DNA from: Pseudomonadota bacterium
Lineage (GTDB): Bacteria > Pseudomonadota > Gammaproteobacteria > UBA4575
NCBI GenBank assembly: GCA_039030355.1
Contig: JBCCEI010000002.1
Span: 1-41,455, forward strand
Length of the DNA: 41,455 bases
Direction: 5' to 3'
This document shows, piece after piece, positions 2,367 through 25,798 of the stretch; positions within the stretch are counted from its first letter, which is position 1, and every line of letters starts with the position of its first letter. The translations under genes and the position numbers were made by a program. The notes below the pieces were generated by a model. The model ran no database searches, had not been told where the DNA came from, and saw nothing but the letters and a program-made list of their open reading frames with translations.

Positions 2367-3020
2367 ATGTCTTTAGAAAAAAATAAAGAAATTGCTGCTG
2401 AAGCTGCACTCGATTACGTACAAAACAACGATATCGTCGGCGTGGGAACAGGATCGACTGCTAATTACTTCATTGATGGCTTAGCAAAACTAAAAAACAA
2501 AATAGATGGTGCCGTAGCAAGCTCTGTAGCGTCCTCTGAGCGATTAAAACAACATGGTATAGAGGTGATTGATGCAAACCAAGTTACTTCGCTTTCTATC
2601 TATGTAGATGGCGCAGACGAAACAACAAAACATAAACATCTCATTAAAGGCGGAGGTGGTGCACATACACGTGAAAAAATTGTTGCTGCAATGAGTGAAA
2701 AATTTATATGCATAGCCGATGATTCCAAGCTAGTAGATGTTTTAGGTGCGTTTCCATTGCCACTTGAAGTCATTCCAATGGCACGCAGTTATGTTGCAAG
2801 AGAATTGGTGAAAATAGGCGGAGCACCAGAGATGCGCGAAAATTTCACTACCGATAATGGTAATGTAATTTTGGATGTGCACAATTTGGAGATTCTCAAT
2901 CCTGTAGAAATGGAGCAACAACTTAATAATCTCGCCGGTATAGTTACAGTTGGAATTTTTGCACTTCGCCCAGCAGATGTGCTCATTCTTGGCACCGATA
3001 AAGGTGCGATTACTTCTTAG
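2367..3020 (+). CDS. rpiA: Ribose-5-phosphate isomerase A
   Basis: Motifs [25 protein letters not shown] and DNGNVILDV are present. The N-terminus [18 protein letters not shown] aligns with the RpiA start, so the start moves from the ORF-track 2313 to 2367. Confidence 0.93.
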
Positions 3021-3044
3021 AACCTAATCTTCTGAGGAAATCTT

Positions 3045-3467
3045 ATGAAAATTAAACTTTATATTGTAATTTTACTTGGCGTTTCTATTATCAGCTCTGC
3101 TATACAGGCTGATAATGCCACTACACAACCTTATGTTTATTTTATCAGCCCCTCGAATGGAGAAGTGATACAAAGCCCCGTATTGGTTAAATTTGGGTTG
3201 CGCGGCATGGGGGTGGCACCGGCAGGTATCGATAAAGAAAATACCGGACACCACCATTTGTTAATTAATCTGGAAAACTTACCTGCATTAGACAAACCTA
3301 TTCCAGCAGACGACCAACACAAACACTTTGGCAAAGGACAAACTGAAGCATATGTAGAACTTGCTCCAGGCACGCACACATTGCAGTTATTGTTTGCCGA
3401 TTTTTCACACATACCGCATGACCCAGCTGTAGTTTCAAAACCGATTACCATTCATGTAGTGGAGTGA
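3045..3467 (+). CDS. Secreted DUF4399-like protein
   Basis: It has a signal peptide (MKIKLYIVILLGVSIISSAIQA) and the GHHHLLIN motif that I associate with DUF4399. AGGAAA precedes the ATG. Confidence 0.6.
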   Translation: MKIKLYIVILLGVSIISSAIQADNATTQPYVYFISPSNGEVIQSPVLVKFGLRGMGVAPAGIDKENTGHHHLLINLENLPALDKPIPADDQHKHFGKGQTEAYVELAPGTHTLQLLFADFSHIPHDPAVVSKPITIHVVE

Positions 3468-3473
3468 GTCTTT

Positions 3474-4220
3474 TTGAATTCTTTTCGTCAACGCTTACAA
3501 CAAGGCGAGGTCCTCCTTAGCACGCTAGTTTCATTACCTAGCCCAGAAATTGTAGAGCTACTTTCAAAATTAGACTTTGATTGGTTATTTATTGATGCTG
3601 AGCATGGACCATTTGGCACCTTGGATATGCAACGAATGTTACAGGCATGCAAAGATGATTTTCCTTGCCTAATTCGGGTAGCGAGCAATGATGTAGTAGC
3701 CATCAAGCATGCACTGGATATCGGCGCCGCAGGCATTATAGTTCCGCAAATCAATAATGCTGATGAAGCACAAGCTGCAGTACGCGCCGCTAAATACCCA
3801 AGTAAAGGTAATCGCGGTGTTGGCTTGGCTCGTGCACATGAATATGGATTGTCCTTTAGCGAATATCTTTCTGATGCAGATCATGACACATGTGTCGTCA
3901 TTCAAGCAGAAACACCAGGTGCAATTGAAGATATTGAAAATATAGTAAGCATTGATGATGTTGATGCAATTTTGATTGGTCCTTATGACTTATCAGCCAA
4001 TCTTGGCCATACCGGCGAAATTGAGCATCCCAAAGTTGTTGCAGCAATTAGCAAAGTAGAACATGCATGTAAGCAAGCAAACGTTAAGCTAGGATATTTT
4101 GGTGTAAATGCAGCTGCAGTGCTACCTTACAAAGAAAAAGGCTTCACGCTGCTTACAATCGGCGTAGATAGCCTTTTTGTTTTAAATGGTGCACAAACAC
4201 TTCTTGATGAAATGAAATAA
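3474..4220 (+). CDS. HpcH/HpaI-family (class II) aldolase
   Basis: A TTG start lies 8 nt after GGAGTG. Motifs FIDAEHGP, LIRV, IIVPQINN and IGPYDLS are typical of 2-keto-3-deoxy-sugar-acid aldolases. Confidence 0.75.
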   Translation: MNSFRQRLQQGEVLLSTLVSLPSPEIVELLSKLDFDWLFIDAEHGPFGTLDMQRMLQACKDDFPCLIRVASNDVVAIKHALDIGAAGIIVPQINNADEAQAAVRAAKYPSKGNRGVGLARAHEYGLSFSEYLSDADHDTCVVIQAETPGAIEDIENIVSIDDVDAILIGPYDLSANLGHTGEIEHPKVVAAISKVEHACKQANVKLGYFGVNAAAVLPYKEKGFTLLTIGVDSLFVLNGAQTLLDEMK

Positions 4221-4240
4221 ACTCGGCGAACTGATGCAAT

Positions 4241-4621
4241 ATGGCACGCGCAATTGAAATTTCAATCAACGAACACCGTATCCGTGTGTATTTGCGCGAC
4301 ACAAACACTGCTGATGCAATATTTACTGCTTTGCCGTTTCAATCCAAAGCACAAACATGGGGTGATGAGGTTTATTTTTCAACACCTATTAGCAATCAAA
4401 CTCTTGAAGAAGATGCAAAAGATGTCGTGCAGCTAGGAGAACTCGCTTATTGGGTAGAAGGAAATTGCATTGCAATTGGATTTGGCCCAACACCCATTTC
4501 CCACGCAGATGAAATTCGACTCGCCGCACGCACTAATATTTGGGCCGACACTGAATATGATTTAACGACTCTCAAGAATGTTCGCAGCGGAGATACAATT
4601 AACGTTACTGCTGCCGAATAG
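4241..4621 (+). CDS. Cyclophilin-like fold family protein (uncharacterised)
   Basis: The 126-aa product carries WGDEVYF and GELAYWVEGNCIAIGFGPTP motifs, typical of the small cyclophilin-like family. Confidence 0.6.
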   Translation: MARAIEISINEHRIRVYLRDTNTADAIFTALPFQSKAQTWGDEVYFSTPISNQTLEEDAKDVVQLGELAYWVEGNCIAIGFGPTPISHADEIRLAARTNIWADTEYDLTTLKNVRSGDTINVTAAE

Positions 4622-4981
4622 TCAGGCTAAGCTCAATTTTCTGCTAAACAATTTGTACACCATAAATGCCACAACAATGCCGCATAGATCAGCTGCAAAA
4701 TCAATAATGCTAAACATACGGTTTGGTATATATAGGTGTAAAACCTCAATAACCATTCCAAACAAAGCCATCAAAATTGCAGTCACTATATAAGGACTTT
4801 TAAAGTTATACGCAAATAATAATAAAATCGACAACACAAAAAATGTTACAAAATGCGCGAGCTTATCTATGTTTTTTATGAATATTAATTGGTTACTCGA
4901 TCCAGGCACACATGACAGGATAAAGACGCCTATAACGCAGCACCAGAATAAAATTCTCAGCTGTTTTTGTTTGATCCACAT
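4622..4981 (-). CDS. VanZ-like small membrane protein
   Basis: The 119-aa product has four hydrophobic segments and a DKLAHF motif. Its stop codon directly abuts the stop of the convergent gene at 4621. Confidence 0.6.
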   Translation of the reverse strand: MWIKQKQLRILFWCCVIGVFILSCVPGSSNQLIFIKNIDKLAHFVTFFVLSILLLFAYNFKSPYIVTAILMALFGMVIEVLHLYIPNRMFSIIDFAADLCGIVVAFMVYKLFSRKLSLA

Positions 4982-5052
4982 GATATGAAAAGCTCAACAA
5001 AAACCTTTCGACACAACATGCGCGAGATGGTTTCATCAGACAATTTTAATTT

Positions 5053-6231
5053 ATGCATTTAAGAACTAGATACTTAGTCATCACAGCAACATTGTTCATT
5101 GCCTTGATGTTATTCTTTACCTGGCTACCTGTATACATTGAACAATCTCGCAATCGAGTACAAACAAAATCGCTTGCAACTATTTCGAAGCAAAGTAAGC
5201 AACTACATCAGTCTTTATTTATTGCAGATTTACATGCTGACTCATTGCTCTGGGATCGCAATTTAAGCAGAAAATCTAATTATGGACACGTAGATATACC
5301 TCGTCTTATTGAGGGCAACATCGGGCTACAGGTTTTTTCTGTGGTTACAAAAACACCAAAAAATCTAAATTTATACAAAAATTCAGATCGCACAGATAAC
5401 ATCACTTTACTAGCCTTAGCACAATTATGGCCGCCCAATACCTGGTTTAGCTTGTTTGAACGCGCCCAATATCAAGCAAAGAAATTGCATCGAGCCGCAC
5501 ACAAATCCAAGCAATTCTTTCATATCATCAAGTCACAGAATGATCTAAAACAATATCTACAAAAAAGAAAAGACAATAATCTAATAACTTCAGGATTACT
5601 GAGTTTGGAAGGTGCGCATGCGCTTGAGGGTAATATTAAAAACCTAGATCGGTTGTTTGATTCAGGCTACAGGATTATAGGATTTTCACATTTCTTTGAT
5701 AATGAACTTGGTGGTTCGGCACATGGCATGCTTAAAAGCGGCATCACTGAGTTTGGCAAACAAGTTTTACAACGCATACATGAGCTAGAAATGTTTGTTG
5801 ATGTCTCCCATGCGTCTCCTAAGTTGATAAATGACATTGTTTTTCTTAGTAAGCGCCCTGTACTGGCTACTCATACAGGGATTCAGTCAGTTTGTTCATC
5901 TAAATCGCATCGTAATTTAAAGGATGCGCAGATTGTAAAAATCGCAAATACTGGTGGCCTCATCGGCATAGGATTTTGGCCGACTTCAACTTGCGGCAAA
6001 GGCGTTATAGGAATTATTGATTCGATTCGTTATGTCATTGACTTGGTCGGCATTGAGCATGTTGCACTTGGCTCAGACTTTGATGGAAATGTATCAGTAC
6101 CATTTTCTGCTAAAGATATCTCACAAATTACCCATGCGTTGCTGCAGACCGGTTTCAATCATGGACAAATTGAAAAAATAATGGGCGGGAATATAAAAAA
6201 TTTATTATTACGCTATCTGCCAGCGCAATGA
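5053..6231 (+). CDS. Membrane-anchored dipeptidase, peptidase family M19
   Basis: There is an N-terminal TM anchor. Motifs DLHADSLLW, LEGAHAL, GFSHFFDNELGGS, VDVSHAS and LGSDFDG match the M19 metal-binding layout. Confidence 0.85.
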   Translation: MHLRTRYLVITATLFIALMLFFTWLPVYIEQSRNRVQTKSLATISKQSKQLHQSLFIADLHADSLLWDRNLSRKSNYGHVDIPRLIEGNIGLQVFSVVTKTPKNLNLYKNSDRTDNITLLALAQLWPPNTWFSLFERAQYQAKKLHRAAHKSKQFFHIIKSQNDLKQYLQKRKDNNLITSGLLSLEGAHALEGNIKNLDRLFDSGYRIIGFSHFFDNELGGSAHGMLKSGITEFGKQVLQRIHELEMFVDVSHASPKLINDIVFLSKRPVLATHTGIQSVCSSKSHRNLKDAQIVKIANTGGLIGIGFWPTSTCGKGVIGIIDSIRYVIDLVGIEHVALGSDFDGNVSVPFSAKDISQITHALLQTGFNHGQIEKIMGGNIKNLLLRYLPAQ

Positions 6232-6234
6232 TAA

Positions 6235-6633
6235 TTATTGCGCTTCTTGCATATCTTTCGTGGCGGAATAGTTTTTATCTTTATAGCGGTTATAAACCAT
6301 TTGCGTTGCAATATCCGATAAATATTTTTCAGGGTTATCATTACAGTGCTTTATCAACAAATCGGTAAGCACGTAAATATCTTCCCCCCAAGTGATGTCA
6401 TAAACATTTTTGGATGAAAAATTAACACCCGACATAAAGCCGGATAACCAAACTGCGCCCAATTCTTTATGAGCTTCATCTTTAGTTCTCTCGGAAAATT
6501 CCGAACACTGAATGTTTCCAAGTCCAATTGCTTCCCAATAACCACCCCCGTAGACTTCAGCAAAACAAAGTGGTGAAACAGACACTGAAATACAAATCAA
6601 AAATGCACTTATAATTTTAGTATATTTTTTCAT
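6235..6633 (-). CDS. Hypothetical secreted/periplasmic protein
   Basis: It has a signal peptide (MKKYTKIISAFLICISVSVSPLCFA) and two further Cys residues. I recognise no family. Confidence 0.5.
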   Translation of the reverse strand: MKKYTKIISAFLICISVSVSPLCFAEVYGGGYWEAIGLGNIQCSEFSERTKDEAHKELGAVWLSGFMSGVNFSSKNVYDITWGEDIYVLTDLLIKHCNDNPEKYLSDIATQMVYNRYKDKNYSATKDMQEAQ

Positions 6634-6638
6634 ATCAA

Positions 6639-6908
6639 TTATAAATTACACCAAAACGGTGCATTATCTTTTTTGCATTCTTCCTCAGATTCACTTAAAA
6701 CTTTTTGTTTATAGGCATTAATTTGGTTTGACACTGGAGCACTTAGTAATGTTAGTAATATATATACAACGCCAATCACGAATAGTGCATTCAACGCTAT
6801 ATTCGTAGGTTTATTACTAATTGAAATGACTTTATAACGCAGTAATAAAATCGCAATACCCGCAAGTATTGTAATCAGCACGGCTATCATTAAAAATATA
6901 GTTGCCAT
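6639..6908 (-). CDS. Hypothetical small two-TM membrane protein
   Basis: The 89-aa product has two clear hydrophobic helices. It lies 5 nt upstream of the previous gene on the same strand. Confidence 0.4.
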   Translation of the reverse strand: MATIFLMIAVLITILAGIAILLLRYKVISISNKPTNIALNALFVIGVVYILLTLLSAPVSNQINAYKQKVLSESEEECKKDNAPFWCNL

Positions 6909-19035: not shown

Positions 19036-19446
19036 TCACTCTGCCTGTTCTGTTTTATAAGGGAACTTAGAAGACCCGTATCTCAACGCAACGGATGCAA
19101 TTGTTAACAATAAAATGGCTGCGGCAAGCCAAACAATATCCAGCGCATTCAGCTCTTTCATGCCTAAAATTATGAAGCGTGTGATTGCCACTATAGAAAT
19201 ATAAATGGGGTAACGTACAGGCAATTTACCGCTGGTAAAGTAAAGCCCTACCATGGTTAAAATTTCTAAATATATAAATAACAACAAGATATCATGCAAC
19301 TCAACACGACCTTGTTCGTAGATCACATGCAATTCCTGCCCAATCGCGATTATTGTTGCAAGTGTGATGAGCACTAAACCAATTCGTTCTACTAACAAAA
19401 TAAAACGCATAATTGGATGTGAATTATTAAGGGTTGGTTTAGGCAT
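19036..19446 (-). CDS. psiE: Phosphate-starvation-inducible protein PsiE family membrane protein
   Basis: The 136-aa product has four TM segments, and LLFIYLEILTMVGLYF fits the PsiE-like pattern. Confidence 0.7.
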   Translation of the reverse strand: MPKPTLNNSHPIMRFILLVERIGLVLITLATIIAIGQELHVIYEQGRVELHDILLLFIYLEILTMVGLYFTSGKLPVRYPIYISIVAITRFIILGMKELNALDIVWLAAAILLLTIASVALRYGSSKFPYKTEQAE

Positions 19447-19472: not shown

Positions 19473-20282
19473 CTAGAAAAATAACTCTTTGAGTTTCGCT
19501 CCAGGATCTTCTGCCACCATAAATGCCTCGCCAACTAAAAAGGAATTCACACCTTTTTCAATCATGACAGCAACATCTTCTTTTGTATGTATGCCACTTT
19601 CTGTAACGACATGGCAATCTTTTGGGATTTTTTCAAGAAGATCATAAGTTGTGTCAAGGGACACATCAAACGTATGAAGATTTCGATTGTTAATGCCAAT
19701 CATGGTAGGCTCGAGCATGAGCGCCCTGTCCATTTCTTCCAAATTGTGCACTTCTACCAGCACATCTAAACGTAACTCTTTCCCTAGTGAATAAAGCTCG
19801 GACATTTGCTCATCATCTAAACATGCTGCTATAAGTAATAAACAGTCCGCATCCACCGCACGCGTTTCATACACTTGGTAGCTGTCGATTATAAAGTCTT
19901 TGCGTAAGATAGGCAGAAAGCAGGTCTTACGTGCAAGCTCTAAAATAGTACAAGAACCTTTAAAAAACTCAGTATCAGTTAAAACTGAAACACAGCTTGC
20001 ACCATTCGATTGATAACTGGTTGCAATTTCCATGGGATTAAAATCTTCACGCAATATACCTTTGCTGGGCGATGCACGTTTTATTTCTGCAATGACACCT
20101 GGGCGTTTCGCCTCTTGTGCACCTCGCAAAGCTCTTTCAAATCCTCTTGTACTGGGTGCATCATTTGCCATTTCTTGCATCTTTTGCAATGGCATATGTT
20201 GCTTGCGCTCTACTAGTTCGTTTCGTTTATGCTCGATAATCTTATTGAGTATTTCTGGCCTTATTTTTGATGATTCAGTCAT
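19473..20282 (-). CDS. trpC: Indole-3-glycerol phosphate synthase
   Basis: Motifs [21 protein letters not shown] and INNRNL are present. Confidence 0.95.
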
Positions 20283-21306
20283 TATTAATTATAAAACTAT
20301 TCGTATATTCAATATAGTGTTGAAACTTATTTTTCGCACCGCCTGATTCGATCGCATCTGCTGCCATACTTACACCTTGTTCGAGATTCTCAGCTTTATC
20401 ACTTGCGTAAATCGCTGCACCCGCATTCAGTTTTACAATATCTAATGCTGCACCTGGCTGATTGTCAAAAACATCCATTACATACTGCAAACTTTGTTGC
20501 ACATCCTTTGCAAATACATCGCTCAAACGTCTGGGTTGCAAATCAAATTGCTGTGGAGAAACCGTATAGGTTGTAATTTCACCATCCTTTAATTCTGCAA
20601 TTTCAGATTCACTACCGATGCTGATTTCATCTAAACCATCATGTGCATGTACGACTAATACATGTTTACTGCCCAAAGACTTTAATACGTTTGCCAATGG
20701 CTTTACCCATTGATTACTGAACACTCCTAGAACCTGATGCGGCGCATTCGCTGGATTGGTAAGCGGACCTAGCAAATTAAACATCGTTCGCGTGCTCAAT
20801 TCTTTGCGTGGACCAATTGCATGTTTCATTGCACTGTGATGTGCAGGCGCAAATAAAAACCCAATGCCTATTTCTTCAATACAGTTTGCAACTTGATCTG
20901 GCGTGAGTTGTAAATTGACCCCTGCAGTTTCTAACAAATCGGCACTGCCGCTTTTACTAGAAACAGACCGGTTTCCATGTTTTGCCACACGTGCACCGGC
21001 AGCGGCTACTACAAAAGCTGCAGCAGTTGATACATTAAATGTTCCCTTTGAATCTCCACCTGTACCACAAGTATCAACTAAATTTTCAGTATTCACTTCT
21101 ACTTTGCTGGATAATTCTCGCATTACCGCCGCGGCTGCAGCGAGCTCTTCTACTACTTCACCTTTCATACGCAACGCAACTAATAATCCTGCTACCTGTG
21201 CAGGTGTTGCCTCACCAGACATGACTGTTCGCATGACACTCGTCATCTGTTCAGTATTAAGATGATTACCTTCAATTACAGTGTTAATTGCTTGTTGAAT
21301 ATCCAT
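20275..21306 (-). CDS. trpD: Anthranilate phosphoribosyltransferase
   Basis: Motifs [32 protein letters not shown] and GPLTNP are present. It overlaps trpC by 8 nt. Confidence 0.95.
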
Positions 21307-21319
21307 TGCTTAAGTAATT

Positions 21320-21901
21320 TTAATTTTGCTTCACGAAATTTGTTAATAAATGATGCCCAAAGTCAGTAAGGATTGATTCTGGATGAAATTGCACACCCTC
21401 AATTGCAAGTTCTTTATGTCGCACGCCCATAATTTCATCAATTTCACCTGAATCATTTTCTGTCCAGGCAGTGACCTCTAAACAGTCAGGCAGGCTTTGT
21501 TTTTCGATTACTAACGAATGATAGCGCGTTGCAGTGAAGGGGTTATCGCATTTTTCAAATACATTGTCATTGTGATGATGCACTAAAGAGGTTTTACCAT
21601 GCATCACTTGTTTAGCCTTGATTATGTTGCCCCCAAAAGCTTGACCAATGCTTTGATGCCCCAAGCAAACTCCAAGAATGGGGGTTTGCCCACCTAGTTC
21701 AGTAATGGTTTCTAACGATATACCTGCTTCATTTGGTGTGCATGGACCAGGAGAAATAACAATGTGATCGGGTTGTAGTGCTTTTATTTCTTTAACAGCA
21801 ATTTTGTCATTACGAACAACTTTAACTTCCTCGCCAATTTCACCTAGATATTGCACTAAGTTATAGGTAAAGGAGTCGTAATTGTCGATCATTAGTATCA
21901 T
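21320..21901 (-). CDS. trpG: Anthranilate synthase component II (glutamine amidotransferase)
   Basis: Motifs [18 protein letters not shown] and GVQFHPES (Cys-His-Glu triad) are present. Confidence 0.93.
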
Positions 21902-22743
21902 ATATGAGTCTTTTTAAGCTTGCTTGCAGGTGCATCTAAATCAAATGCATCTCGCAAAGATTCTTGTAATCGAGCTAACGTATCTTCGGCTTCTTGTAAC
22001 TGTTTCATAATCTCATCACGACCGGGTGGTTTACGTAGCTCCTTGAGCTTTGCTTGTTTTGCTTCATCAAGATTATTAATCACAATTGCAATAAACAAAT
22101 TTATTATCACAAATGTCCCAAGCACAACAAAGCTTACAAAATACATCCAGGCATAAGGAGACAATTCCATGCCGGCATACATCACGTCAGTCCAATCTTC
22201 CAATGTGGCAATTCTGAATAAGGTTAATAATGAAATACCAACATTACGCCAGTGGGTTGGATCATGTTCATGAAATAAGTGGAAACCCATGATCGCATAG
22301 ATGTAAAAAATTACACTCATTAATAACATGACATTGGCCATGCCAGGGATCGAGCGTAACAATGTACTTACGATCAGGCGCAATTCTGGCAATGCAGAAA
22401 TCAAACGCAGTACTCTAAGCAATCTTGCTAAACGCGCAATCATTGCAAATTGGCCTGTAGCCGGTATCAGCGAAAATACAATAATGCTGAAATCAAATAG
22501 GTTCCAACCATTTTTAAAATATTTGCTAATTTGTGGAGCAACAGCAGTAATTTTAATGACTGCTTCTAGAATAAATATGCCTAAAATAAACTGATTAAAA
22601 AAATGAAATAGGCTTCCATATTTAGAATTCAATTCAGGTGATGTTTCTAGACCCAATATGGCAGCATTCACTATAATTAAGGCGATAATGATTCTGTCAA
22701 ACCATTTGTTGGCCACAACATTTACACAAAACGTTCTCATCAT
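21898..22743 (-). CDS. Voltage-gated ion channel of the bacterial NaV (NaChBac/NavAb) family, with an acidic TLEDWTD pore filter
   Basis: It has six TM segments. S4 carries Arg at every third position ([11 protein letters not shown]). The pore loop is [14 protein letters not shown] and there is a C-terminal coiled-coil-like tail. Its stop overlaps the trpG start (ATGA at 21898-21901). Confidence 0.85.
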
Positions 22744-22785
22744 CTATATCTATTCCCTAGAATTTTAATTTTGCATCATTAAGCG

Positions 22786-24249
22786 CTAGGTTATTGATGC
22801 AGCAACTTGCGCCGCTTTCATCATTGCACCAGCTTTGTTATTTGTTTCAATCCATTCATTCTCAGGTACTGAGTCATAAACAATCCCTGCTCCTGCTTGA
22901 ATATAAAGTTTTTGATCTTTTACTACAGCAGTACGAATCGCAATTGCAGTATCCATATTTCCATCCCATGATATATAACCTACGGCGCCTGAATAAATAC
23001 CACGTTTACTAGGTTCAAACTCATCAATAATTTCCATAGCGCGAATTTTGGGTGCGCCACTGACTGTTCCGGCTGGAAATGTTGCTTTTAAGACATCAAT
23101 CGCATCAAGTTGGCTTGCCAGGCGACCTGTGACATTAGAAACGATATGCATCACATGTGAATATCGCTCGATAATCATCTTATCGGTAAGTTTGACTGAT
23201 CCTGTTTCTGCCACTCGCCCTACATCGTTGCGCCCCAAGTCGATCAACATCAAGTGTTCTGCCAACTCTTTTGGGTCGGCCAAAAGATCTTGTTCCATTT
23301 GTAAATCGTTTTGTGCATCTGTTCCTCGCGGACGTGTTCCTGCGATCGGTCGTACTGTGACTTCTTCGTCTTCCAGACGCACTAATATTTCAGGAGATGA
23401 GCCAACGATGTAAAAATCATCCAGGTTCATGTAATACATGTATGGAGAAGGGTTTAAACTACGCAAACTACGATAAAGGTTTATGGGTGGTGCAGTAAAT
23501 TCTGTACTTTGTCGTTGAGATAAAACAACTTGCATCACATCACCCGCACGTATGTACTCACGTGTTTCATTTACAGCTTTTTTGAACTTACTTTCAGTAA
23601 ACTCTGTAATAAAATTTACAGGTTTGGATTCTTCAAATTTAGAGATTGTTGGAATGGGTTGCTGCAAGTTTTCTGCAAGCTCCTTTAACCTATGTTTACC
23701 TTGTTCAAGTGCCAGTGTATTGCTTGGGTCGACATGAACAATTAAAAATATTTTGCCACTTAAACTATCAAACACAACTAGTTCTTTTGAAACCATCAGA
23801 AAGATGTCAGGAGTTTTCAAAACATCTGGTTTTGCCTCACCTTTTAATCGAGGTTCAATGTACTGAATGGTTTCGTAGCCAAAATAACCTACCATACCAC
23901 CTGTAAAACGCGGTAATTCGGGAATTTCTGGCACGTTATATTGTTGTATAAAAGTTTGAATCCAAGTTAATGGATTCTCTACTTCTTCTTGTTTGTTTGA
24001 ACCATCACCTAACTCATGCAGCACTGTATTACCAAATACTTTTACGCGTTCTGCGCATGACAAACCAATAAATGAATATCGTCCCCAGCGTTCCCCACCT
24101 TGAACCGATTCAAATAAGTAGGTATATGGTTGATGTGCAAGTTTTAAATACGCACTTAATGGCGTATCAAGATCTGCCAACACTTCGTGTACCAAAGGGA
24201 TACACGTGTAGCCTTGGCTTTTTAGTAAATCAAATTGTTCGGAATCCAT
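22786..24249 (-). CDS. trpE: Anthranilate synthase component I
   Basis: Motifs LFESV, GTRPRG, LIDLGRNDVGRV, GAPKIRAMEII and GIYSGAVGY are present. GGAG precedes the ATG. Confidence 0.95.
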   Translation of the reverse strand: MDSEQFDLLKSQGYTCIPLVHEVLADLDTPLSAYLKLAHQPYTYLFESVQGGERWGRYSFIGLSCAERVKVFGNTVLHELGDGSNKQEEVENPLTWIQTFIQQYNVPEIPELPRFTGGMVGYFGYETIQYIEPRLKGEAKPDVLKTPDIFLMVSKELVVFDSLSGKIFLIVHVDPSNTLALEQGKHRLKELAENLQQPIPTISKFEESKPVNFITEFTESKFKKAVNETREYIRAGDVMQVVLSQRQSTEFTAPPINLYRSLRSLNPSPYMYYMNLDDFYIVGSSPEILVRLEDEEVTVRPIAGTRPRGTDAQNDLQMEQDLLADPKELAEHLMLIDLGRNDVGRVAETGSVKLTDKMIIERYSHVMHIVSNVTGRLASQLDAIDVLKATFPAGTVSGAPKIRAMEIIDEFEPSKRGIYSGAVGYISWDGNMDTAIAIRTAVVKDQKLYIQAGAGIVYDSVPENEWIETNNKAGAMMKAAQVAASIT

Positions 24250-24325
24250 ATCATCTCCAGAATTTTATATTCTCTCAGATTAGAACCATCCAAGTTCTAT
24301 CTGAAGAAAAATAGCATGTAATAAA

Positions 24326-24392
24326 CGTCGGTGTTGAATTAGCAACGCCAACGAAGATACTCAGCTATTCCATCCTGAAAAGTCATGCTCAT
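24326..24392 (-). promoter_or_regulatory. Candidate trpE leader peptide (17 aa, one Trp codon) with overlapping hairpin
   Basis: The minus-strand ORF MSMTFQDGIAEYLRWRC* spans 24392-24339. The hairpin CGUUGGCGUUG-CUAAUU-CAACACCGACG (24353-24326; 10 of 11 positions pair, including one G-U) contains the UGG codon and is followed by UUUAUUA. There is no clear SD. Confidence 0.25.
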
Positions 24393-24405
24393 CGAAGACA
24401 ATTCC

Positions 24406-25095
24406 TTAGTTTGTATTAATTAAATATTGCGGCACTTCCGCGACGGAGTCGATTATATAGTCTGCGCCCAAAGCATCAACTCCTTTGCCCTGATGATATC
24501 CATATCGGACGCAAAATGACTGCATATTTGCTGCATTGGCTGCTTTCATGTCACTTGCAGAGTCCCCCACCATCACGGCTTGAAATGGACTAAGATCCGC
24601 TTGTTTGAGCACAGTTTGTAAAACTTGAGGGTCTGGCTTTTTGACTGCTAAATCATCCCCACAAATCAGATATTCAAAAAATCCATCAATCTCAAAAGCT
24701 CGTAAAAGTGGTGGAGTAAATCGCCTAGGTTTATTCGTTACACATGCAAGCATATAGCCACGCTCATGCAACTCGGTTAATCCTTCTAACGCACCAGCAT
24801 ACATTGTGCTTTGAACATTGATATGCTCAGCATATAAATCAAAAAATAATTGTTGTGCTTGTTTGAATAATGTTGCAGGTGGCTCCCCGCTAACCTCTCC
24901 CGTTAAGGCACGTTTGATTAATCGCATTGCGCCATTACCCATCCAATCTCGAACTTGTGCAATATCTTGCGTAGGTAGATCTAATTGCAACAACATTTTG
25001 TTTAAACTAATCGCAATGTCGGGCGCACTGTCGACTAATGTGCCATCCAAATCAAACATCACGCAACGTGTTTGCGCTAGAATTTTATTCGACAC
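24406..25095 (-). CDS. gph: Phosphoglycolate phosphatase (HAD superfamily)
   Basis: Motifs VMFDLDGTLVDS, VTNKP and VGDSASDMKAA are present, and the conserved rpe-gph-trpE context is intact. Confidence 0.88.
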   Translation of the reverse strand: MSNKILAQTRCVMFDLDGTLVDSAPDIAISLNKMLLQLDLPTQDIAQVRDWMGNGAMRLIKRALTGEVSGEPPATLFKQAQQLFFDLYAEHINVQSTMYAGALEGLTELHERGYMLACVTNKPRRFTPPLLRAFEIDGFFEYLICGDDLAVKKPDPQVLQTVLKQADLSPFQAVMVGDSASDMKAANAANMQSFCVRYGYHQGKGVDALGADYIIDSVAEVPQYLINTN

Positions 25096-25102
25096 GGAAA
25101 TT

Positions 25103-25798
25103 TTAGGAAGTAACTTTTGAAGTGTTAGCTAGTTCATTGCGCATTTTAGCGATCGTGCCTACGTAATCTTTAGTATTGAATATAGCCGAACCGGCCACAA
25201 ACGTATCCGCACCGGCAGCTTTAATTTCAGCAATGTTATCTATTTTCACACCACCATCGATTTCTAGTCGAATGGGCATACCTGAAGCATCAATCAGTTT
25301 TCTTGCTTGTTTAAGTTTTTTTAACACAGCAGGGATAAATTGTTGGCCACCAAACCCAGGGTTCACGGACATCAACAAAACCATATCAATTTTATCGAGC
25401 ACGTATTCAAGCTGATCCAATGGTGTTGCAGGATTAAACACCAGACCAGATTTGCAGCCTTGGTCACGTATCAGTTGTAAGCTGCGATCGATATGCTCAG
25501 AACCTTCAGGATGGAATGTGATGTAACTTGCACCGGCCGCAGCAAAGTCAGAAATTAATCGATCAACTGGCTTAACCATTAGATGCACATCAATAGGCGC
25601 TTGAATTCCGTAATCACATAGCGCCTTACAAATAACAGGACCAAACGTTAAGTTAGGAACATAGTGATTATCCATTACATCAAAATGGACAATATCCGCG
25701 CCAGCATCCAATACTGCGTTTACCTCTTCTCCCAAACGTGCAAAATCCGCTGAGAGAATTGAGGGCGCGATCCAATCATTGTTCTGATTTGTTGACAT
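25103..25798 (-). CDS. rpe: Ribulose-phosphate 3-epimerase
   Basis: Motifs [38 protein letters not shown] and DGG are present. Confidence 0.95.

Follow-up and report, generated by a model that had tools for sequence, protein, structure and literature searches.

A gene encoding a voltage-gated cation channel was found to lie between trpE and trpG, the genes for two subunits of anthranilate synthase, in a 41,455-nucleotide stretch of DNA from a Pseudomonadota bacterium (GTDB lineage Gammaproteobacteria, UBA4575; GenBank assembly GCA_039030355.1, contig JBCCEI010000002.1, positions 1 to 41,455), hereafter called the window. The trpE-channel order recurs in 18 other loci, and it is an arrangement inherited across many marine Gammaproteobacteria, not a strain-specific one. 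The channel group, the selectivity filter of a characterised member and the attenuation class of the trp leader were already known. What seems to be new is that a voltage-gated channel gene has been inserted into the trpE operon and conserved there, which places an ion channel under predicted amino-acid attenuation; the channel itself is not of a new kind. In the literature on BacNav, NaChBac and voltage-gated sodium channels, no description of a linkage to trp genes, anthranilate or the tryptophan operon was found, nor do the papers on the 'ancestor-like' BacNaV (AnclNav) group describe it, the AnclNav review mentioning neither operons nor tryptophan. I consider it fairly probable that one joint explanation applies: the channel gene would have resided for a long time in a gammaproteobacterial operon, trpL-trpE-channel-(trpG-trpD-trpC), being expressed by read-through under attenuation, encoding a Na+-type pore and kept in its place by expression hitch-hiking.

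In the window, the genes rpe, HAD/gph, trpE, channel, trpG, trpD, trpC and psiE follow one another in this order, all on the minus strand. The trpE gene for anthranilate synthase component I (22786-24249, 487 aa; Pfam Chorismate_bind 7.7e-95, Anth_synt_I_N 9.9e-35) ends with a stop codon at 22786-22788, and the channel open reading frame (ORF; 21898-22743, 281 aa) begins with an ATG at 22743-22741. The spacer between them (22744-22785) is thus 42 nt in length and contains an AGGGA sequence (22758-22754) 10 nt before the channel ATG. On the other side, the TGA of the channel gene overlaps with the ATG of trpG (21320-21901, glutamine amidotransferase subunit of 193 aa; Pfam GATase 2.4e-63) through an ATGA at 21901-21898. 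The intact 281-aa ORF between trpE and trpG, the spacer with its AGGGA and the stop-start overlap had all been described in an earlier prediction made from the DNA alone (the original prediction), and every coordinate was verified in the sequence. The GC content is 0.35-0.385 across the channel gene and about 0.38-0.44 across its neighbours, without a marked compositional break. A scan of the window found neither a terminator-like site nor a promoter-like (sigma-70-like) site at the trpE/channel junction, at the channel/trpG junction or in the 42-nt spacer, a negative that is weak evidence for the junctions since the promoter scan used only the E. coli sigma-70 consensus. Promoter-like sites were fewer than in shuffled sequence.

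The trpG start deserves a separate remark. At 21901-21915 of the window and at the matching sites of two related loci (L002 and L010), no Shine-Dalgarno sequence can be recognised for trpG, and only an A-rich stretch is present within the last codons of the channel gene. TrpG synthesis may therefore depend on ribosomes completing a membrane-protein ORF. If TrpG synthesis hinges on channel translation, it may be an odd route to the stoichiometry of TrpE and TrpG, the upkeep of which would be affected by a channel gene placed between the two.

Is this arrangement common in other Gammaproteobacteria? I performed a tblastn analysis with the Trp proteins of the window against all fetched loci (n=89) that carry a related channel gene. 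In 16 of the 89 loci, trpE immediately precedes the channel gene, and two complete-genome contigs (L090 and L092) bring the number to 18 (the others being L001, L002, L010, L028, L030, L036, L041, L043, L044, L045, L063, L065, L066, L067, L069 and L074). The taxonomic labels of the trp-linked loci include Thiotrichales, Pseudomonadales, Arenicellales, Halothiobacillaceae and Sansalvadorimonas. The synteny check proposed in the original prediction thus gave a positive answer across several gammaproteobacterial orders, and the possibility raised there, that the arrangement might be unique to this strain, is contradicted by the 18 further loci. In three close relatives (L001, L002 and L010), the channel is 79-83% identical to that of the window and the order rpe-gph-trpE-channel-trpG-trpD-trpC is kept. 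The upstream CreD, cytochrome c and CopD genes of the window are all present in L002, while the cytochrome c and CopD genes are present in L001. In the distant carriers, labelled as Gammaproteobacteria, Pseudomonadales, Ca. Azophilus, Arenicellales, Halothiobacillaceae and Sansalvadorimonas, the channel is 55-64% identical to the window channel. All of the trp-linked loci found are from metagenome-assembled genomes; no cultured carrier of the trpE-channel pair was found, the two cultured Gammaproteobacteria checked being Nitrosococcus halophilus Nc4 and Kangiella, so immediate genetics is limited.

The junctions are compact in most trp-linked loci, with gaps from -17 to +58 nt. The trpE stop codon overlaps with the channel start codon (ATGA) in L036, L041 and L045, and the two are 3-5 nt apart in L043 and L063. 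At the other junction, the end of the channel gene and the beginning of trpG share 4 nt in the window, L001, L030 and L066, and 17-20 nt in L067 and L069. Some loci (L043, L044, L063 and L074) keep the trpE-channel pair without trpG downstream, having a tsaD, a glyoxalase-like or a Ysc84-like gene there instead. The pairwise identities of TrpE and the channel are correlated over 16 trp-linked loci (r = 0.90, Mantel p about 2e-4), and also without the close clade (r = 0.93). This co-divergence is the pattern expected from joint inheritance, not from repeated recent insertion.

A recent neutral, strain-specific insertion or a horizontally acquired cassette would be another way to place a channel gene in a trp operon. 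The channel family does occur in many unrelated contexts and phyla, and Vicinamibacterales sequences nest among the gammaproteobacterial ones in a neighbour-joining (NJ) tree. Nevertheless, this origin has a negligible probability: the arrangement extends to relatives with no more than 58-83% TrpE identity, the flanking genes (CreD, cytochrome c, CopD, rpe, gph ... trpGDC) are common to L001 and L002, no GC anomaly is seen at the channel gene and the channel is under strong purifying selection (see below). Recent horizontal acquisition of the channel was rejected on the lack of a GC anomaly, the conserved arrangement and the co-divergence of TrpE and the channel.

A few loci have a long spacer between the channel gene and trpG, ranging from 100 to 609 nt. 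The spacer of L036 (5775-5919) has about 40-nt tandem repeats (…CCTCGGAGCGGGGGCA.CTTGCCCTCGAACTGCC…), that of L041 (5793-5892) contains a GC-rich hairpin, and that of L065 (4097-4705) is 609 nt in length and contains open reading frames. The operon may be split into trpE-channel and trpGDC in these three loci. L045 is labelled as an uncultured Rhodobacterales bacterium, while its channel is nearly identical in the NJ tree to those of L036 and L041 (Pseudomonadales, Ca. Azophilus) and its trpE/channel overlap is the same. This contig is probably mis-binned and not alphaproteobacterial.

The channel protein matches Pfam Ion_trans (PF00520) with an E-value of 2.3e-52 over profile positions 1-239 of 241, and no NCBIfam model names it. 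The best solved bacterial relatives are NavCt (PDB 4bgn, 6e-54), NaChBac (6vwx, 1e-53) and NavAb (about 1e-49). With BacNaV matches in the PDB near 1e-54, the assignment to the BacNaV family of voltage-gated channels in the original prediction is well founded. The four gating charges of S4 are R104, R107, R110 and R113 (22405-22434), at the three-residue spacing predicted earlier. They are invariant in a 24-sequence alignment, and so are the countercharge positions E33, N50, E60 and D84 in S1-S3. The pore segment (residues 176-189) has the T-L-(E/D)-x-W signature between the P1 and P2 helices, and the selectivity filter TLEDWTD (residues 180-186; 22186-22206) is identical to the NavPp filter. 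The coiled-coil-like tail noticed before is borne out by a C-terminal heptad helix (residues 243-267; 21943-22017), a coiled-coil neck typical of BacNaVs, whose hydrophobic residues occupy a/d positions 245, 249, 252, 256, 259, 263 and 266 with 4-3-4-3 heptad spacing. The tails would form a four-helix bundle at the channel C-terminus. An AlphaFold2 monomer model built from the 24-sequence alignment has a mean pLDDT of 59, with the pore domain below 50. Because of this low confidence, the model was used for secondary structure alone, and a fold search would mean nothing; at this level, it has a helix at 242-266 and a helix pattern that fits S1-S6 plus P1/P2.

Where does this protein stand among the BacNaVs? 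The reference channels for identities and for the tree were taken from the sequence set published with the AnclNav description (PMC7041947). The window channel is 65% identical to that of Mariprofundus ferrooxydans PV-1, 58% to that of N. halophilus Nc4 and 56% to that of a Pseudomonadales member with the filter TLEGWVD, while it is 43% identical to CavMr, 38% to NaChBac and 36% each to NavPp and NavAb. Overall, the identity is 54-65% to the short-loop AnclNavs (Mariprofundus PV-1, N. halophilus, Pseudomonadales RIF and Kangiella) versus 34-42% to the canonical BacNaVs. In the NJ tree, which has no bootstrap values, the channel is placed within the AnclNav clade, in the subgroup without the long P2-S6 loop of NavPp and CavMr. 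AnclNavs are distinguished by one or two extra acidic residues at filter positions 4 and/or 7, and the window channel has both D4 and D7. The short-loop AnclNavs of Mariprofundus PV-1 and N. halophilus Nc4, the closest named relatives, share the filter, the HEHDPxHW turret and the length class with the window channel. The canonical BacNaVs NaChBac (TLESWAS) and NavAb (TLESWSM) share the fold, the gating charges and the T-L-E/D-x-W signature, but they are 36-38% identical and belong to another phylogenetic group. The gene product is a single-domain six-transmembrane (6TM) voltage-gated cation channel of the AnclNav group, maintained and presumably functional.

The family is large. More than 6,400 relatives were found at E <= 1e-20 in a search of a protein collection; in species-representative genomes, at least 599 stretches were matched, and 587 of the matches listed encode a channel relative. 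Between the window channel and three relatives, pN is 0.12-0.15 and pS is 0.76-0.81, values given as such and not as dN/dS because synonymous sites are saturated, and trpE and trpD are in the same range. The channel gene is under strong purifying selection, as strong as that on the trp enzymes, and chance falls far short of explaining it. The short-loop AnclNavs with TLEDWTD are a large, abundant and uncharacterised branch under strong purifying selection. Bacterial voltage-gated channels are workhorses of structural biology, and, to my knowledge, the physiological roles of those of the Na+/Ca2+ type are largely unknown outside alkaliphilic Bacillus. The placement in the trpE operon behind a predicted Trp-sensing leader would offer a rare testable regulatory handle on BacNaV physiology.

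TLEDWTD is found exactly in 120 of the 120 best homologues, and it is the norm of a large family and no peculiarity of the window gene. It was claimed in the original prediction that TLEDWTD is a Ca-type filter, by analogy with NaChBac mutants and engineered CavAb. A comparison with the characterised AnclNavs does not support this extrapolation. NavPp from Plesiocystis pacifica, the sole characterised native channel bearing TLEDWTD, prefers Na+, with a PCa/PNa of 0.308, and extracellular Ca2+ blocks it (Shimomura et al. 2020, PMC7041947). It belongs to the same AnclNav group as the window channel and shares the single-domain 6TM architecture, the four S4 arginines and the C-terminal helix, while its long P2-S6 extracellular loop (…YGCDRYGYSADSVVQCVTPKAQP…) is missing in the window channel. 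CavMr from Meiothermus ruber, the first native prokaryotic Cav, has the filter TLEGWVD, and its Ca2+ selectivity hinges on Gly4; the G4D substitution reduces PCa/PNa from 218 to 7.7 with loss of monovalent selectivity, and CavMr with a TLEDWTD filter is poorly selective, with a PCa/PNa of 13.8 and a PK/PNa of 0.95 (PMC7041947). The same authors show that the number of negative charges does not predict Ca2+ selectivity in AnclNavs and that filter swaps reveal differing selectivity rules for AnclNav and NavAb pores (PMC7041947). The window channel belongs to the same group as CavMr and shares Asp7 with it, but it has Asp4 and Thr6 in place of the Gly4 and the supporting Val6 of CavMr. The engineered CavAb (TLDDWSD) and CaChBac stand with the canonical BacNaVs. 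CavAb has Asp4 and Asp7 in common with the window channel, but position 3 is Asp in CavAb and Glu in the window channel, and the backbone of the latter is that of an AnclNav instead of NavAb.

A native Ca2+-selective prokaryotic channel, CavAb-like by virtue of its acidic residues at filter positions 4 and 7, is accordingly an improbable reading of the window gene. The two Asp residues are indeed two of the CavAb substitutions, CavMr with TLEDWTD still favours Ca2+ about 14-fold over Na+, and the window channel is a little closer to CavMr than to NavPp. These points have to be set against the Na+ preference and Ca2+ block of NavPp with its identical native filter, the need for Gly4 in this group, the Asp at position 3 of CavAb and the failure of charge count as a predictor. 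Thus, Ca2+ permeability of the window channel is unsupported and Ca2+ selectivity is unlikely by analogy. The best guess is that the TLEDWTD pore would conduct Na+ with modest selectivity and be inhibited by external divalent cations, as NavPp is. Since the closest measured channels are only 36-43% identical, this preference is extrapolated from relatives. The notion that more acidic filter residues bring Ca2+ selectivity seems to be a tempting but wrong rule of thumb for these channels.

Upstream of trpE, a trpL-like leader ORF was found at 24339-24392. It has 17 codons (MSMTFQDGIAEYLRWRC-stop) and a single Trp codon (24350-24348) in its end, CGT-TGG-CGT-TGC-TAA. These last codons lie in the 5′ arm and the loop of a candidate attenuator hairpin (24318-24353 including the tail), whose arms are 24353-24343 and 24336-24326 and which is followed by a T-rich run, TTTATTAC. 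The RNA fold of 24247-24400 has a free energy of -44.8 kcal/mol (z = -3.6 versus shuffles), and L001, L002 and L010 share the hairpin with the window, despite one-sided and two-sided (compensating) changes. Leader ORFs precede trpE in most trp-linked loci, with endings such as …WRC, …WRY, …HWRW, …WRWRLG, …GWRWRQW and …GWWR. The R-W-R motif matches the core, RWRWRA, found in both trpL1 and trpL2 of P. aeruginosa. An Rfam scan of the whole window gave no family at the gathering score, that is, no curated trp leader or other RNA. In P. aeruginosa, replacement of the Trp codons of trpL1 and trpL2 revealed ribosome-dependent attenuation of trpE and trpGDC, which are separate transcription units in Pseudomonas with their own leaders (PMC13434334). 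For P. putida, trp attenuation is credited in that paper to Olekhnovich and Gussin (2001). The Pseudomonas trpL1-trpE and trpL2-trpGDC loci and the window have in common the rpe-gph-trpE neighbourhood and an R-W-R(-W) leader ahead of trpE. Unlike the window, Pseudomonas has no channel gene after trpE, and the leader of the window clade has one Trp codon versus two in Pseudomonas. A trpL-type attenuator upstream of trpE is plausible from these features.

Because a Pseudomonas-type leader and a hairpin precede trpE, expression of the channel gene is predicted to follow the charging of tRNA-Trp. The channel gene would have neither a promoter nor a terminator of its own and would be transcribed by read-through from the trp promoter, the output of which would be gated by the ribosome-dependent trpL attenuator. 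The channel mRNA would then rise as charged tRNA-Trp falls; in other words, the channel is probably switched on by tryptophan shortage. Its ORF would be translated from its own weak purine-rich site, and translation of trpG may be coupled to the termination of the channel ORF via the ATGA overlap. Co-transcription and probable translational coupling had been put forward in the original prediction, and the anatomy (junctions without a terminator-like site, the 42-nt spacer and the ATGA) does imply both, which supports this part of the prediction.

The position could also mean nothing for regulation. A promoter of the channel's own in the 3′ end of trpE or in the spacer, independent initiation at trpG and Trp-independent expression would make the arrangement an accident of a compact genome. 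The AT-rich spacer would suit such a promoter, and the 100-609 nt channel-trpG spacers of L036, L041 and L065, with their repeats or hairpins, are places where the operon may be split. The separate trpE and trpGDC units of Pseudomonas, each with its leader, are a precedent (PMC13434334). On the other side, there is no sigma-70-like site in or just upstream of the window spacer, and in several lineages the trpE stop codon overlaps with the channel start codon, so that any promoter there would have to lie inside the trpE coding sequence. I regard this possibility as quite unlikely and read-through from the trp promoter as the better account.

Why, then, does a channel gene sit in a trp operon? 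Expression hitch-hiking is a likelier reason than any biochemical partnership between the channel and anthranilate synthase. In this view, a gene without a promoter, encoding a membrane protein of low abundance, would have entered a housekeeping operon of steady expression and since been frozen there, because relocation needs a new promoter and an imprecise change harms trp expression. The distribution of the family outside trp operons is in line with this. About half of the sampled gammaproteobacterial loci are not trp-linked, and all Nitrospirales, Zetaproteobacteria, Dehalococcoidia and Vicinamibacterales loci have equally conserved channels outside trp operons. In L081 (1128-5800), the purL stop codon overlaps with the channel start codon. 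In N. halophilus Nc4 (L093, CP001798.1, 2611-7878), in contrast to the window, the channel gene is wedged between peptide ABC permease and ATPase genes, the two junctions being a 2-nt gap and an 8-nt overlap. A UvrD/PcrA helicase gene precedes the channel gene by 35 nt in Dehalococcoidia, and in Nitrospirales the channel gene comes behind formiminotransferase (FTCD) and CBS-domain genes. The Kangiella channel gene stands alone, and that of Mariprofundus PV-1 (L073) has no trp gene within 5 kb. The family thus seems to be prone to living within housekeeping operons. The trpE-trpG interval of P. aeruginosa holds the R/F-pyocin cluster, and I take it to be a known insertion-tolerant site. If only hitch-hiking is at work, the window would still show cleanly how a membrane-protein gene can become fixed between the genes for two subunits of a single enzyme.

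The other answer is functional coupling, in which selection would have made the channel part of the response to tryptophan starvation and its attenuation-controlled induction alters Na+ or cation flux or the membrane potential as tRNA-Trp charging drops. It might, for example, adjust Na+-coupled uptake, motility or growth, roles to which I give a similarly low probability; in an alternative and equally doubtful form, transertion of the channel would tether the trpE-trpG mRNA to the membrane. In favour of coupling, trpE and the channel gene stay paired across orders and show the co-divergence described above, and they do so also in four lineages in which trpG is no longer adjacent. The overlapping codons at trpE/channel (L036, L041 and L045) and at channel/trpG (the window, L001, L030 and L066), the predicted Trp-sensing leader of the operon and the fact that the purL and peptide ABC contexts also concern nitrogen or amino-acid supply are of the same tendency. 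Against coupling, no biochemical link between a channel and anthranilate synthase is known or was found in the literature searched, the many loci outside trp operons carry the same kind of channel, and a position within an essential operon is hard to change, so that conservation can be passive. Therefore, hitch-hiking is ranked ahead: it is rather probable, while selected co-regulation with Trp starvation is unlikely. It is likewise a minority possibility that, in a broad set of Gammaproteobacteria, a tryptophan-starvation circuit has been selected to control this voltage-gated cation channel by attenuation, as one of its outputs. If it were true, falling tRNA-Trp charging would yield more channel alongside anthranilate synthase and convert amino-acid status into Na+/cation conductance or membrane excitability; the large AnclNav family would thereby gain a first physiological role, and the channel would be the first ion channel under amino-acid attenuation. 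A link between ammonium conduction and glutamine amidotransferases, suggested by the two contexts in which trpE/G and purL neighbour a channel gene, is a low-probability idea.

Several observations weigh against the joint explanation of read-through, attenuation, a Na+-type pore and hitch-hiking. The promoter scan with the E. coli sigma-70 consensus may have missed an internal promoter. The window clade has just one Trp codon in its leader, no alternative antiterminator fold was identified and the leader hairpin went unflagged in the terminator scan, so the attenuator is plausible and not proven. The distance of NavPp, only 36% identical and with a long P2-S6 loop, together with the PCa/PNa of 13.8 conferred by TLEDWTD in the CavMr backbone, makes the transfer of selectivity to the window channel uncertain. 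Simple hitch-hiking does not strictly require the trpE-channel pair to be so deeply conserved, even where trpG has moved away, and this depth could reflect selection for co-regulation.

Some further features of the family and of the locus were noted. L032 and L035 (about 2700-5800) are among the loci in which the channel gene is lodged in other operons by tiny gaps or overlaps. In the Nitrospirales loci L005-L009 (about 3300-6800), TusA and DsrE-like genes on the opposite strand are followed by the FTCD gene, the CBS-domain gene and the channel gene. In the NJ tree, which has no support values, the channels of Vicinamibacterales (Acidobacteriota) and one of Longimicrobiales (L049, L055, L056, L060-L062, L064, L078-L080, L082, L083 and L088) nest inside the trp-linked Pseudomonadales cluster. 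This suggests horizontal transfer out of Gammaproteobacteria to Vicinamibacterales and Longimicrobiales.

The other genes of the window locus were identified by Pfam. Upstream of trpE lie rpe (25103-25798) and a HAD phosphatase gene (gph-like; 24406-25095). Downstream of trpG lie trpD (20275-21306, 343 aa; Glycos_transf_3 2.9e-94) and trpC (19473-20282, 269 aa; IGPS 1.5e-93), the start of trpC overlapping with the stop of trpD by 8 nt. A gene for a PsiE-family (phosphate-starvation-inducible) membrane protein follows 26 nt after trpC on the same strand in the window (19036-19446) and is also found in L010 (7742-8149), while other genes occupy this position in L001 and L002. The PsiE-family gene may be a further passenger on the trp transcript.

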